Shown: positions 3,457 to 51,501 of the stretch, piece by piece
Layout of the letters: every line of letters begins with the position of its first letter
Position numbering within the stretch: the stretch's first letter is position 1
DNA from: a phage
DNA: 64,000 nucleotides
Direction: 5' to 3' (one strand)
Sequence record: PZ151149.1
Notes under the pieces: generated by a model
Database searches by the model: none
Told to the model about the DNA's origin: nothing
Seen by the model: only the letters and a program-made list of their open reading frames with translations
Position numbers and translations under genes: made by a program

Positions 3457-3486
3457 TATTATGATATACACCCGATCTTATGTCAA
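3457..3486 (-). promoter_or_regulatory. sigma70-type early promoter cassette
   Basis: TTGACA (3486..3481), 17-18 nt spacer, CATAAT/ATAATA -10, then conserved UTR and AAGGAG SD. Confidence 0.6.
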
Positions 3487-3492
3487 CACTTT

Positions 3493-3771
3493 TTATAAAA
3501 TAATTTTTTGACATTTTTCTATGATGTTCGTGTAAGTCACATCAACCGCTAGCACCGTTGCTTCGAATCCACCGTTTAGCCAATGGCTATGATCTTTTTC
3601 GTCAAAGAAGCCGAGGCCAATACGAAGACCTTCCTTATATTCTGCGCGTACATTTAAATCATCGTCGATAAACAGATAAAACCATGAATTTTTACTAGGA
3701 TTGATGATACAACCTTTCAGATTAGGGAGAATATCACGACTAAGAATAAACTTATCACCTACTTTGAGCAT
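3493..3771 (-). CDS. small protein, HxHW/AVDV paralog family member A (93 aa)
   Basis: ATG at 3771 with GAGGAAA SD; C-terminal motif HSHWLNGGFEATVLAVDV shared with four neighbouring ORFs. Confidence 0.5.
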   Translation of the reverse strand: MLKVGDKFILSRDILPNLKGCIINPSKNSWFYLFIDDDLNVRAEYKEGLRIGLGFFDEKDHSHWLNGGFEATVLAVDVTYTNIIEKCQKIIL

Positions 3772-47093: not shown

Positions 47094-48086
47094 TTAGTAA
47101 TGGCTAAAACCTTCGGTTACATCTTCAACCACATAGTAACGATGACAGCGCATTTTAGCATTCGCATAATCTTTCGGGATACTTACAACGTGACGCGGAT
47201 CAACTTTGCATTTAATGATTCGGCCTCGTCCACCGCCATAGTGCGGAATGTAGTGTTTCGCTGCAACGTGGAGGCCATTAGAGCAAGTGCGATCATCATC
47301 TGGGTCCACGTCTTTACGTTTCATTTTAACCGTGCGCCCTGGGCTATTATCAAATGTATGCGTAAAGAAATCTTTATAATCAACATCAACACGTTTCCAT
47401 GCATAGAAACAACCATCTTCCCCGATCTCAATGTCGTTGTGCTCTAAGAAGTCAAACAGACGATCTACCGCCTTACGGCTAGGGTTTTTCTTGCACTTCT
47501 CAAAGAAGTTCAGATAGTGCGTATATGGCTTATTCTCTTTAATCGATTCCACAACTCGGCGAGTCAGATTATTATCAAGAACAATATTATGATAATACAC
47601 AATACCATTTTCGATACGGAAAGCGCCGTGATAATATACTTCAACCGCTTTCTTAATGTCAATCAGCGTAATAGCTTTGATGAAATCATTATGTTTAATC
47701 GCTTCCAGTGCTTCATTAAAGTTAACATGCGACGGATCAGCAGTATAAACAATGTCACCACATGTAATAGTAATAAACTTAGTTGAGGCTATTGCTACGA
47801 TTTTTGAGGAAGTAGTCACGGGCTTTTTTGCGCGTTCACCGCCTTTTCCTTTACTGGTTTTACGGCGTGCTTTACGTTTTTCTAGTGCCTTGCGACCTTC
47901 CGCTACTGCGTCTTTCTGAATCAGTAATACACGGGAGGCAGTGCGACGAGATACACCAAATGCTGCCGCAAGTGCTTCGCGGGTAGTAAACTTACCTTCG
48001 CCCCACTGTTTAGCCAGTTTGATTTGTTTTTCAGAATCCAGGCATTGAACGTTACGGTCAGAGACGGTGATTTTTGCTTTAGTCAT
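47094..48086 (-). CDS. rIIB: rIIB protein
   Basis: Immediately downstream of rIIA; C-terminal blocks RLFDFLEHNDIEIGEDGCFYAWK, FDNSPGRTVKM, GLHVAAKHYIPH, VVSIPKDYANAKMR, VVEDVTEGF match recalled T4 rIIB; N-terminal HTH. Confidence 0.65.
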   Translation of the reverse strand: MTKAKITVSDRNVQCLDSEKQIKLAKQWGEGKFTTREALAAAFGVSRRTASRVLLIQKDAVAEGRKALEKRKARRKTSKGKGGERAKKPVTTSSKIVAIASTKFITITCGDIVYTADPSHVNFNEALEAIKHNDFIKAITLIDIKKAVEVYYHGAFRIENGIVYYHNIVLDNNLTRRVVESIKENKPYTHYLNFFEKCKKNPSRKAVDRLFDFLEHNDIEIGEDGCFYAWKRVDVDYKDFFTHTFDNSPGRTVKMKRKDVDPDDDRTCSNGLHVAAKHYIPHYGGGRGRIIKCKVDPRHVVSIPKDYANAKMRCHRYYVVEDVTEGFSHY

Positions 48087-48148
48087 AGTATTCATTCCTC
48101 TATTAGTTGGGCGACTATCGCCGCCCGATTCACATCATTATACCAGAA

Positions 48149-48280
48149 TTATTTTGCTTCTACAACCTTGCGGATTGTGCGGTCTGATACATTATAGATT
48201 CGTGCCAGTTCGCCTTTAGTCAAGCCGCGAGCGTATTGTTTACGGATGGTTTCTTTCTGGATAGCGGTCAGTTTAGTCAT
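48149..48280 (-). CDS. 43-aa helix-turn-helix mini-protein between rIIA and rIIB
   Basis: Below track cutoff; MTKLTAIQKETIRKQYARGLTKGELARIYNVSDRTIRKVVEAK; AGAGGTGA SD; resembles rIIB N-terminal HTH. Confidence 0.4.
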   Translation of the reverse strand: MTKLTAIQKETIRKQYARGLTKGELARIYNVSDRTIRKVVEAK

Positions 48281-48291
48281 AATATCACCTC

Positions 48292-50400
48292 TTAAAATTT
48301 AACATTCTTAACCAGTTTCATAAAGTCTTGTGCGCGTTTGTCGTTATGCAGAATACGATACCAGTTATCTACAATATCATACAGTAACGGGCTATTCTCT
48401 TTAAACTTCGCACAAACTGCTTTAATTCGTTCGTTTGCTGCCGTGAATTTTTCATCACAGATCTTTTTAGTTTCTTCGTCCATAATCCAACGAGTACGAA
48501 GGAGTAACTTGGAAACCTCTTTATTATAATGACGACCGTACAGTCTGTCAATAAATTCTGGAACACAGCGTTCTAGTTCATCGTCATGAAACAACATAGT
48601 GATCACACCCAGATATTCGCCATACCCCAGATGATTGGTCTTAACCTTCTTAGCCAGACCAGCCAGCTTACCGCGAACAAATTCTAGCGCACATTCCAAT
48701 TGTTCGTCAACGAGATATTTTTGTGTCTCGTTACGGGTAATAATATACTTTGTTACCCCGAAGTAGTCAAGCGCCGTGTGTAATGTATTTTCACTATGGA
48801 TCGATTTACGACTACGGCTTTCGAATGCATCACCTACGCGGAACATGTGCAAGCCTGATAACTCGCGAATCTCTGCCGCTTTCATGTGATGGCTGGTTTT
48901 ATGCCAACTGTCACCAATCTTTTCCATGATATACACGTTAGGCAGCTTAGGAGTCGCTTCACGTTGTGTACGCTCGGTCTTCTCCGGTTTAACTGCTTTA
49001 GCACGCAGATCATCGGCCTCAGACACTTTAATCACGGTCATTTCAGAATCATCATAATACTGTTTGATGTACTCGAAAGTCTCCATATGTTTTTCGTTGC
49101 GCTGACGGAACACAAGTACCTTTTTATTGATTCCGTATTCCTGGACCATGCCGTTAAGAGTCAGTGCACGCAGTTTCGGTTTATCGGTATCATCAATTAC
49201 ACACAGAATATCTTCTTTATGCATCCATACAAAATGCGTAATGTTGTATTGACTGCTAACGAAAGCAGGGCGCAATTTACTGATTGTGTGACGAGTACGA
49301 CACAGAGTATACACCTGACCTTCTACGTCATTAGGCGAATCTTTACCCGCATTCACAAACTTATTATAGATTGCTACCGGATCATCCCATTGTCCGATCT
49401 TACCCATCTTGCTAATAATATTGCGTTGAGTCGATGAATACTCGCTCATAAATTGCGCAAGTTTACGCTCTGTTTTAATGTTGGCGATCTTTTCTTTAAC
49501 CTTTTCCAACATCATTTCATTGATTTCTGCAATGCGTTTTTCGATGTTCGCTTTAGTCTCAATTGACAAGTGAACTTCTTCACGCGATGGCATCAGGTCC
49601 AGATCACCCAACTCAAAATTAATGTAAATGGTCTGGCGCTGGCGGTTTACAGCTTCTAACCATGTTCCGCGAACATATTCATACGGGATCGGATACTGGA
49701 TCTTACCCATGATTGCATATACTACATAGGAATCGTTATCACGCCCATTACAAACATAATAATTATCAAAGCTAGGGAAATAATTAATTTCGATTGCATT
49801 GATATTAGGTTTGTGTTCCCCAAAATGACGCAGTACAAATTGCGCTTCTCGATGCCATGTCTGAATGTCTTTTTCTTTCACCGGAATAGTGATTTTCAGA
49901 CCATTGTCTTCATAGGTCGGTTCGTCGAAAATCTGCACCATTTTCGGCATAGAGTTTTGCACGAATGCAGTAAATCCATAAGCGCGACCATTGTAATAGT
50001 TTACGATTGTAAAGGTGTCGGTATAGCTATAAGCAGACTTCGCACCTAAACCAAAAGATCCGATATAGTCATTAGTCTGGTCTTTTGTTGATTCAAAGTA
50101 AACCGTAAACAGTTGTTCTAATTCTTTCTTAGACGGAATACCCGTACCATAATCACGCACAGAAAAATACGGTTCGATTGCAGTCGGTAAATGAATATCA
50201 AACGGACGGTCTAAGGTTCCGGCTTCTTTGTGAGTGTCGGTAGCATTGCACGAATACTCACGGACGCAAGCACGCTCACAATATTGATAGGTATTCTTAG
50301 AAAGCACCATAAAAGCCTTGCTACTTGCTTTCAGTGAAAAATCAACCGCACCGCTCAGATCACTACCAAATACTTCTTCATTATCGATATGCATTTTCAT
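48292..50400 (-). CDS. rIIA: rIIA protein
   Basis: 702 aa (T4 rIIA about 725 aa); GHKL/Bergerat ATPase-like motifs (DYGTGIP ... GSFGLGAKSAY); followed by rIIB. Confidence 0.8.
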   Translation of the reverse strand: MKMHIDNEEVFGSDLSGAVDFSLKASSKAFMVLSKNTYQYCERACVREYSCNATDTHKEAGTLDRPFDIHLPTAIEPYFSVRDYGTGIPSKKELEQLFTVYFESTKDQTNDYIGSFGLGAKSAYSYTDTFTIVNYYNGRAYGFTAFVQNSMPKMVQIFDEPTYEDNGLKITIPVKEKDIQTWHREAQFVLRHFGEHKPNINAIEINYFPSFDNYYVCNGRDNDSYVVYAIMGKIQYPIPYEYVRGTWLEAVNRQRQTIYINFELGDLDLMPSREEVHLSIETKANIEKRIAEINEMMLEKVKEKIANIKTERKLAQFMSEYSSTQRNIISKMGKIGQWDDPVAIYNKFVNAGKDSPNDVEGQVYTLCRTRHTISKLRPAFVSSQYNITHFVWMHKEDILCVIDDTDKPKLRALTLNGMVQEYGINKKVLVFRQRNEKHMETFEYIKQYYDDSEMTVIKVSEADDLRAKAVKPEKTERTQREATPKLPNVYIMEKIGDSWHKTSHHMKAAEIRELSGLHMFRVGDAFESRSRKSIHSENTLHTALDYFGVTKYIITRNETQKYLVDEQLECALEFVRGKLAGLAKKVKTNHLGYGEYLGVITMLFHDDELERCVPEFIDRLYGRHYNKEVSKLLLRTRWIMDEETKKICDEKFTAANERIKAVCAKFKENSPLLYDIVDNWYRILHNDKRAQDFMKLVKNVKF

Positions 50401-51434: not shown

Positions 51435-51501
51435 TATTAAATCCTCATAAAAGAAAAGGGAGACTCCCATTATAGAGAATCTCCCTTGTATGTCAAGTGT
51501 T

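Follow-up and report, generated by a model that had tools for sequence, protein, structure and literature searches.

The rII locus carried on sequence record PZ151149.1, a phage DNA of 64,000 nucleotides (nt) that is referred to below as the window, contains a third gene of just 43 codons between rIIA and rIIB. The pattern of its conservation indicates that this mini-gene is a genuine protein-coding gene under strong constraint, and its product is predicted to be a bare helix-turn-helix (HTH) domain of the type found at the N-terminus of RIIB. The source of the window is a Krischvirus (RB49-like Straboviridae). The explanation that we consider best combines a real gene, an origin of its product from an RIIB-type HTH and an accessory role in the rII module, and we give this reading as a whole a probability of about 0.6.

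On the minus strand the order is rIIA, an 11-nt spacer containing GAGGTGA, the 43-codon open reading frame (ORF), a 62-nt spacer and rIIB, which ends at 47094. The genes and the signal concerned are as follows.

48149..48280, minus strand: mini-gene for a free-standing three-helix HTH protein; ATG start, 43 codons and TAA, MTKLTAIQKETIRKQYARGLTKGELARIYNVSDRTIRKVVEAK.
48285..48291, minus strand: ribosome-binding site of the mini-gene, GAGGTGA, directly after the rIIA stop codon and 4 nt before the mini-gene ATG.
48292..50400, minus strand: rIIA, the upstream gene of the rII module; 702 residues, annotated as RIIA in relatives, with weak matches to GHKL ATPases.
47094..48086, minus strand: rIIB; 330 residues from the ATG at 48086, with an HTH at about residues 18-60, a helix, a disordered basic linker and a C-terminal domain.

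The rIIA stop codon occupies 48292-48294, and the mini-gene ATG lies 11 nt downstream of it. The initial annotation, made from the letters of the window alone, had marked 48096-48291 as holding a 43-residue ORF with a strong Shine–Dalgarno (SD) sequence between rIIA and rIIB. That span is exactly the gap between the rIIA stop and the first rIIB ATG (48095); the ORF runs from ATG to TAA at the coordinates listed, and the SD sequence GAGGTGA (48291..48285) stands 4 nt ahead of its start. The accompanying statement that rIIA and rIIB are directly adjacent in T4 also agreed with the T4 sequence, where 11 nt separate the rIIA stop from the rIIB ATG.

The gene itself is already present in databases as an uncharacterised hypothetical protein. 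In RB49 it is RB49p274 (hypothetical protein), whose product is 100% identical; it is KNU01_gp160 in KFS-EC, a ‘DNA binding HTH domain protein’ in phage W115, and hypothetical in Phi1, JSE and GEC-3S, being annotated as a coding sequence in RB49, KFS-EC, GEC-3S and W115. The protein belongs to PHROG 15481 (117.7 bits, residues 1-43 aligning to profile positions 1-43), a family whose function label is ‘unknown’, and a literature search for Krischvirus expression data returned none.

Several lines of evidence indicated that the ORF is more than a chance reading frame. The 1.5 kb surrounding it matched 59 phage records at 95-99% identity (for example RB49, Phi1, JSE, GEC-3S and KFS-EC), and tblastn recovered the mini-gene in all 59 at 97.7-100% amino acid identity, so that no losses were seen among these isolates. 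A search of 5.8 billion proteins gave five protein clusters matching the mini-protein, each exactly 43 residues long and with identity down to 69%, and a sixth lineage (contig L093) carries a 45-residue version. Throughout the contigs of these lineages (L004, L005/L006, L087/L088, L089 and L093) the gene was always found between rIIA and rIIB, and in L004, L005, L087, L089 and L093 a GAGGTGA, GAGGTAA or GGTGA box follows the rIIA stop by 4-11 nt. Start, stop and ribosome-binding site are intact and the length is constant at 43-45 codons in all six lineages. The ratio of non-synonymous to synonymous change (dN/dS) between lineages was 0.02-0.33, with proportions of differing sites of 0.02-0.24 (pN) versus 0.47-0.78 (pS), the synonymous sites being near saturation. 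The mini-protein is also the best-conserved product of the locus (72-86% identity, against 28-42% for rIIA and 52-67% for rIIB): 28 of its 43 columns do not vary, and these cover helices 2 and 3 completely (TKGELAR-YNVSDRTIR-VVE). Both its universal carriage in the 59 records and this purifying selection mark it out as a true gene. Because the spacing and the ribosome-binding site directly after the rIIA stop are conserved across lineages, these results suggest that translation of the mini-gene is coupled to that of rIIA.

A profile search of the 64-kb window found no further copies of the mini-gene, and neither the contigs examined nor IMG/VR contained it anywhere but in the rIIA-rIIB slot. 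In IMG/VR it was confined to Krischvirus contigs; the one extra match (L099) was an unrelated 100-residue Xre-like protein from a high-GC phage.

The predicted structure of the product is that of a small HTH domain, as the initial annotation had proposed from an HTH-like stretch of residues. The AlphaFold2 model (mean confidence, pLDDT, 90.7) has three helices at residues 6-18, 22-28 and 33-41, and the protein ends after helix 3, leaving a bare HTH domain with no linker and no C-terminal domain. In Pfam, CENP-B_N (PF04218) scored 26.0 bits against a gathering cutoff of 21.2, with Sigma70_r4, HTH_28, HTH_7 and others below their cutoffs; this match to the CENP-B_N or psq-type tri-helical HTH is an assignment of fold class only and is uninformative on function. 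In Foldseek the DNA-binding HTHs of IstA, CENP-B, gamma-delta resolvase and NarL/LuxR superposed best, at TM scores of 0.7-0.8 and, resolvase excepted, root-mean-square deviations (rmsd) of 1-2.6 Å, with E-values that were not significant for so short a query. CENP-B(1-129) gave a TM score of 0.78 with an rmsd of 1.6 Å and IstA and CENP-B together 0.72-0.79 with 1.0-1.6 Å, the rmsd for gamma-delta resolvase being higher at about 4.3-4.4 Å. The HTHs of recombinases and transposases (the C-terminal one of gamma-delta resolvase and Hin, the N-terminal ones of IS21 IstA and CENP-B) thus resemble the mini-protein in size and tri-helical fold, but those of resolvase, IstA and CENP-B are domains of larger enzymes that gain affinity through dimerisation or extra arms, whereas here the HTH is the whole protein. 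No solved structure of the mini-protein or of RIIB was found, the best sequence matches in the PDB having E > 0.2. The net charge of the mini-proteins is +6 to +8 (+7 here, isoelectric point about 10.4), which lies at the top of the range of rIIB-fused HTHs (median +2) and is as expected of a nucleic acid binder.

The closest known counterpart is the N-terminal HTH of RIIB (T4 rIIB residues ∼5-47; PHROG 609, PF26926 Phage_T4_rIIB). Both have the pattern L-T/S-x-x-Q-K-x-x-I ... G-x-(T/S)-K-x-E-L-A-x-x-Y-x-V-S-x-D/R-T-I-R-R/K-V, and both lie in the same locus at the same position after rIIA. Unlike the RIIB domain, the mini-protein is free-standing at 43 residues, much more basic (+7 against a median of +2) and far more conserved, and unlike the T4 arrangement the mini-gene coexists with a complete rIIB bearing its own HTH. 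The window rIIB is collinear with T4 rIIB from residue 15 (44% identity, E 1e-84); since it keeps its own orthologous HTH, the mini-gene is, as judged from this alignment, an extra HTH and not a piece missing from rIIB. Neither is the mini-protein itself an RIIB, as it lacks the RIIB C-terminal domain (PF26926/PHROG 609) and its match to PHROG 609 is weak and limited to the HTH (positions 756-795, E 0.009).

The initial annotation had stated that the mini-protein resembles the N-terminus of rIIB and might be a duplicate of it. The resemblance was apparent against T4 rIIB residues 7-45 (41% identity, E 5e-4 in a single pairwise comparison) and against a profile built from 34 distinct rIIB-fused HTH domains, from which the mini-proteins were left out. 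With this rIIB-only profile the window mini-protein scored 48.4 bits (E 3e-14 within the window), and in the whole 64 kb just the mini-ORF and rIIB were matched. The mini-proteins as a group scored 46-52 bits, as compared with 45.8 bits for a genuine rIIB, and the best Pfam or non-self PHROG family for the mini-protein reached no more than 26 bits. They also outscored all of about 145 unrelated HTHs chosen from 1.84 billion proteins for their likeness to the mini-protein.

The resemblance did not extend to the rIIB of the window itself, and several results weigh against an RIIB origin. BLASTP of the mini-protein against its cognate rIIB gave no relevant match, the pairwise similarity being not significant, and the cognate rIIB HTH is missed by the mini-protein profile. 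With the rIIB-only profile, scores of up to 44 bits are obtained for unrelated HTHs. In the reciprocal direction, only one of the 150 best matches of the mini-protein profile among the 1.84 billion proteins had an rIIB C-terminal domain, and what the profile retrieves are mostly generic, often multi-copy HTH proteins. Its best single-domain match was the C-terminal HTH of an HNH endonuclease (P0024, 48.8 bits), followed by unrelated small HTH proteins (P0042, P0053, P0077 and P0081); the best rIIB HTH reached 32 bits. Paralogy with the rIIB N-terminus is thus unproven, even with the rIIB-only scores of 46-52 bits in its favour.

These results could mean that a generic HTH, such as the tail of a homing endonuclease or transposase or an ORFan borne by one of the promoter/stem-loop cassettes called PeSLs, was acquired independently and has no evolutionary or functional tie to the RIIB HTH. 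This alternative concerns the origin of the gene only. Besides the non-rIIB matches of the mini-protein profile, it is favoured by the PeSL that borders the mini-gene, as PeSLs have been proposed to act as shuttles for ORFans (PMC2839356). However, the generic matches represent the extreme tail of 1.84 billion proteins, in which about 40 rIIB sequences already reach 32 bits, and the rIIB-only profile ranks the mini-proteins above every generic HTH of that tail and above a true rIIB. Moreover, the gene is not known outside the rIIA-rIIB slot, it occupies the position of the T4 rIIB start, and the PeSL lies on just one side of it. We therefore regard independent capture as rather improbable, and the mini-gene as a likely, not a proven, detached copy of an RIIB-type N-terminal HTH module.

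Two observations were made on the generic HTH proteins in passing. The free-standing HTH P0077 (49 residues) comes from an unrelated bacterial setting. The same HTH unit (LTxxQxxxIxxxYxxGxSxxELAxxYGVSxxTIxRIL), in 4-7 tandem copies, makes up many proteins of 220-720 residues from bacteria and phages (P0006-P0018).

The distribution of the gene on the rIIB tree was informative as to how often it arose. Among 80 IMG/VR rIIB loci a free-standing HTH was found in Krischvirus-type loci only, the others with a detectable HTH having a single fused one. In a neighbour-joining tree of the rIIB C-terminal domain the four mini-gene lineages analysed formed one clade (bootstrap 83, rising to 100 for its three inner members). 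L094 and L095, the closest lineages that lack the mini-gene, branch elsewhere on the tree, and the gene is also absent from more than 70 other rIIB loci. Because the carrier lineages form one clade, the tree suggests that the mini-gene arose once and has been retained since; its carriers are, on this evidence, a single clade of T4-like phages made up of Krischvirus and four to five uncultivated lineages.

The organisation of rIIB in these phages gives some indication of where the gene may have come from. The slot of the mini-gene is that of the T4 rIIB start, at the same 11-nt distance after the rIIA stop. Contig L004 (4685-6064; ENA ERZ27260015 k141_60519) has an rIIB of 459 residues with three tandem HTH units ahead of the C-terminal domain, the second and third being closely alike, so that with the free-standing 43-residue gene upstream this locus contains four HTH modules. 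In 68 rIIB protein clusters the HTH count was one in 46, none detectable in 21 (distant homologues) and three in tandem in one (L004). Except in L004, rIIB of the mini-gene clade has an extension of about 10 residues before the HTH that is absent from other rIIBs. This extension (KAKITVSDR) resembles the segment after the T4 HTH (KVTISGD) and the linkers between the L004 repeats, the similarity being too short to weigh. A history in which the leading HTH of a tandem array split off as a cistron of its own, the mini-gene, would fit the T4 start slot, the rIIB N-terminal extension and the tandem duplication in L004.

The model of the window rIIB (AlphaFold2, pLDDT 86.9) showed low confidence at residues 84-96, a basic segment between the HTH with its following helix and the C-terminal domain. 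This suggests that the RIIB HTH is a self-contained module joined to the C-terminal domain by a disordered linker. T4 reportedly grows on lambda lysogens without the first segment of its rIIB (the r1589 fusion; Crick et al., 1961; Champe and Benzer, 1962), which would fit an HTH module that is separable from the function of the C-terminal domain. The ORF of rIIB as called by program begins at an ATG at 48095 (MNTMTKAK...). The sequence GAGGA (48100..48096) abuts that ATG and lies 9 nt before the ATG at 48086, which is the rIIB start annotated in RB49 and KFS-EC (330 residues) and fits the layout of L093. The second ATG, at 48086, is thus the most likely start.

Two rIIB loci elsewhere showed rearrangements of the reading frame. 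In L010 (∼3465-3500; IMGVR_UViG_638276010_000001, RB43-type) a 1-nt difference from L009 and L011, about 10 codons before the rIIA stop, places rIIA and rIIB in one frame of 1050 residues, where its siblings L009 and L011 have an overlapping rIIA stop and rIIB start (TAATG). The PHROG 609 ‘RIIB’ profile has 1055 positions, and rIIA-rIIB fusions have therefore been annotated. In L040 (21-975; IMGVR_UViG_2700989062_000001) a frameshift between the linker and the C-terminal domain splits rIIB such that an 86-residue HTH ORF overlaps one of 271 residues; the split reflects a natural mutation of rIIB or else an error in the assembly.

The regions before and after the mini-gene contain the following promoter-like and structural elements.

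48523..48551, minus strand: perfect TTGACA-17-TATAAT, inside the 3′ coding part of rIIA (codons ...IDRLYGRHYNK...), 271 nt before the mini-gene ATG.
48137..48165, minus strand: promoter-like element, TTGTAG-17 nt-TATAAT with TG (extended −10), the −35 lying inside the last mini-gene codons; corresponds to a promoter annotation in GEC-3S.
48109..48126, minus strand: GC stem-loop, GGGCGGC-GATA-GTCGCCC, with a 7-bp stem, a 4-nt loop and no T-run.

The TATAAT-like box and short hairpin that the initial annotation had noted ahead of rIIB correspond to the TATAAT at 48142..48137 and the stem-loop at 48126..48109. The extended −10 after the mini-gene stop reads TGGTATAAT, and TTCTGGTATAATG is common to the window and L004 in this promoter element before rIIB. 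The GEC-3S record has a promoter with −35 and −10 signals annotated at the equivalent place, and L005 and L087 have a full TTGACA-17/18-TAYAAT at the equivalent position in the spacer, with the −10 in the hairpin loop; the TTGTAG −35 of the window is too weak for a consensus promoter scan. The 71-nt region with the stem-loop folds at −18 kcal/mol (z = −2.4). A GC stem of 7-10 bp is present in every mini-gene lineage and differs in each (GGGCGGC, GCGCCTC, GTCCTGA, GCGTCCC and TGCGCCC), none having a T-run, and the spacer gave no match to a known RNA family in Rfam at E ≤ 1. An intrinsic terminator was rejected, as there is no T-run and the terminator scan did not call it, and so was an operator for the mini-protein, as the stem sequence differs between lineages and the recognition helix is invariant. 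In our reading the stem has a structural role or acts at the RNA level, or else belongs to a recombination-prone PeSL; an operator or a classical terminator is unlikely.

The PeSLs described in RB49 and phi1 consist of an upstream stop codon, a sigma-70-type promoter, a G(n)-loop-C(n) stem-loop (five positions), an SD sequence and a start codon (PMC2839356, PMC4122927). The spacer between the mini-gene and rIIB has this same layout, in the subclass with the stem-loop downstream of the −10 (Arbiol et al., 2010, PMC2839356; Comeau et al., 2014, PMC4122927), and that of L005 and L087, in which the stem-loop overlaps the −10, corresponds to another published subclass. It differs from published PeSLs, with their near-perfect TTGACA, in its weak TTGTAG −35 and extended −10, and from the PeSLs of hyperplastic regions in that it lies in a conserved gene pair and on one side of the mini-gene only. 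The rII locus is not mentioned in the two PeSL papers (PMC2839356, PMC4122927). By its layout the spacer is therefore a PeSL-type promoter/stem-loop cassette that would serve rIIB, its promoter activity being predicted.

Such a cassette is not specific to the clade, because sister lineages without the mini-gene also have a hairpin and promoter between rIIA and rIIB. In L094 (3418-3500) and L095 (3414-3500) the region between rIIA and rIIB, the latter with a single HTH, contains a GC hairpin and then GTTTACA/GTTTAAA-N17-TATAAT, an early promoter of the T4 type. rIIA and rIIB are uncoupled in these lineages as well, without a mini-gene. What sets the Krischvirus clade apart is the extra gene and not the cassette. 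Elsewhere in the window a textbook PeSL was seen at 51456-51496 (minus strand; TTGACA-16-TATAAT whose −10 is placed in the loop of a hairpin of 13 bp, with a T-run after it), and TTGACA-N16-18-TANAAT sites numbered 12, all on the minus strand, compared with 0.32 expected by chance.

Upstream of the mini-gene, L093, L087 and L005 have near-consensus sites 223-261 nt before the gene, in the same alignment stretch of rIIA as the perfect site of the window despite only about 40% rIIA identity. This suggests that 48523..48551 is a candidate internal promoter for the mini-gene and rIIB, possibly a conserved one. In T4, too, an rIIB promoter lies within rIIA at a similar position.

As for function, we tentatively propose that the mini-protein is a nucleic acid-binding accessory of the rII module rather than a classical dimeric repressor, and consider this part of the explanation distinctly less secure than the origin of the HTH. 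Its expression, alongside that of RIIA, would be driven by the early promoter ahead of rIIA and by the internal promoter in the 3′ end of rIIA. As a monomer the protein would contact nucleic acid with the invariant helix 2-turn-helix 3 (TKGELAR[IV]YNVSDRTIR[KR]VVE), and it might provide in trans, or at another dose or time, what the HTH of RIIB does in cis. Some points speak against such a role. A monomeric HTH of 43 residues is on its own usually a weak DNA binder. Comparison of the spacers by eye did not identify a DNA target, and literature searches found no paper discussing the gene, its expression or its function. Foldseek with the full rIIB model against the PDB returned only meaningless matches, giving no lead on the fold of the C-terminal domain and no fold relative of RIIB. 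One review treats RIIB as a putative transcription factor (PMC7824862).

A stronger form of this proposal, which we think improbable, is that three genes make up the rII system in the RB49-like clade, with the 43-residue HTH as a required third component, ‘RIIC’. The job of the RIIB N-terminus would then be done in trans, in step with RIIA and on a target of such constancy that helix 2-turn-helix 3 has remained unchanged while RIIA drifted to about 40% identity.

It is also conceivable, if doubtful, that the mini-protein is an autoregulator in the manner of the anti-CRISPR-associated (Aca) proteins, binding the strong early and PeSL promoters around rIIA and rIIB and damping their transcription. 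The initial annotation had offered an independent small regulator as its other reading, and on a regulatory role as such the sequence evidence is neutral. Proteins of the Aca type are dimeric and larger, and their binding sites are conserved inverted repeats in the operon promoter. The likeness lies in a small, basic HTH protein encoded inside a phage anti-defence operon with very strong promoters: consensus sigma-70 promoters are dense in the region, and the −35 of the rIIB promoter lies within the 3′ end of the mini-gene, an inverted repeat following closely. As to the setting, rIIA and rIIB counter RexAB, and RIIB is sensed by bacterial gasdermin/CARD systems (10.1101/2023.05.28.542683), and PeSL promoters were reported to be deleterious when cloned, being so strong (PMC2839356). 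However, the recognition helix is invariant while the nearby inverted repeats are of unrelated sequence and hence unlikely operators, and the spacers, which were compared by eye and not by a systematic motif search, have no other shared operator-like word beyond −10-like hexamers. Unlike Aca, the mini-protein has no room in its 43 residues for a dimerisation element and the locus has no conserved inverted-repeat operator; nor did the mini-protein match any Aca-named family in the libraries searched. The tight coupling to rIIA would also suggest stoichiometric rather than regulatory amounts. An accessory that binds nucleic acid as a monomer remains the role that we favour.

A non-functional relic, in which the mini-gene would be the stop-truncated 5′ end of an old rIIB left by gene replacement or duplication, is very unlikely. 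Its position at the T4 rIIB start and its likeness to the rIIB N-terminus would suit such an origin, and truly broken rIIB genes do exist, as in the frameshifted L040. The initial annotation had itself allowed that relatives might carry a stop-interrupted rIIB N-terminus here; what they carry is an intact gene of 43-45 codons with its own ribosome-binding site and stop. The dN/dS of 0.02-0.33 with saturated synonymous sites, the constant length and intact signals in six lineages, the conservation above that of both neighbours, the absence of losses in 59 isolates and the complete HTH retained by the T4-collinear rIIB next to it led us to exclude a pseudogene fragment by sequence analysis. Least credible of all is recoding to a two-HTH RIIB, whether by readthrough or by a bypass, like that of T4 gene 60, across the 62-nt gap: a stop codon is followed by a hairpin and a gap of 50-70 nt, and the last sense codon of the window mini-gene (AAA) recurs at rIIB codons 3 and 5, but this match of take-off and landing codons is seen only in the window and L005 and not in L004, L087 or L093, the gap varies in length between lineages and contains a promoter, the reading frames of the mini-gene and rIIB differ, and each lineage provides rIIB with a ribosome-binding site and ATG of its own, so that a fusion of this kind, which in gene 60 relies on matched and conserved take-off and landing codons, was rejected.

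The genes rIIA and rIIB are the most historic gene pair of molecular genetics, and one clade of T4-like phages carries at this locus a third, extremely constrained gene that encodes just an RIIB-type HTH. In this clade a mobile promoter/stem-loop cassette uncouples rIIB from rIIA, and across the rII modules compared the number of HTH copies ranges from none detectable (distant homologues) through one, and one plus one free-standing, to three plus one free-standing. In the literature searched, the clade-wide constraint on the mini-gene, its profile kinship with the RIIB HTH and its placement at the T4 rIIB start ahead of a PeSL cassette appear to be undescribed. Small HTH proteins are common in phages, and the finding is therefore a useful annotation with a hypothesis attached and not a surprise: on the sequence analysis the locus is a domain-architecture variant of a known system, with a function that is predicted only. 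To our knowledge, the target of the HTH is a part of the 70-year-old rII problem that has never been addressed. In the mini-gene the HTH stands out as a functional unit that can be separated from the rest of the rII system, and the gene provides a very small, tractable handle on that target; should the three-gene view prove true, a synthesisable peptide of 43 residues would give direct experimental access to the target of the classic rII HTH.

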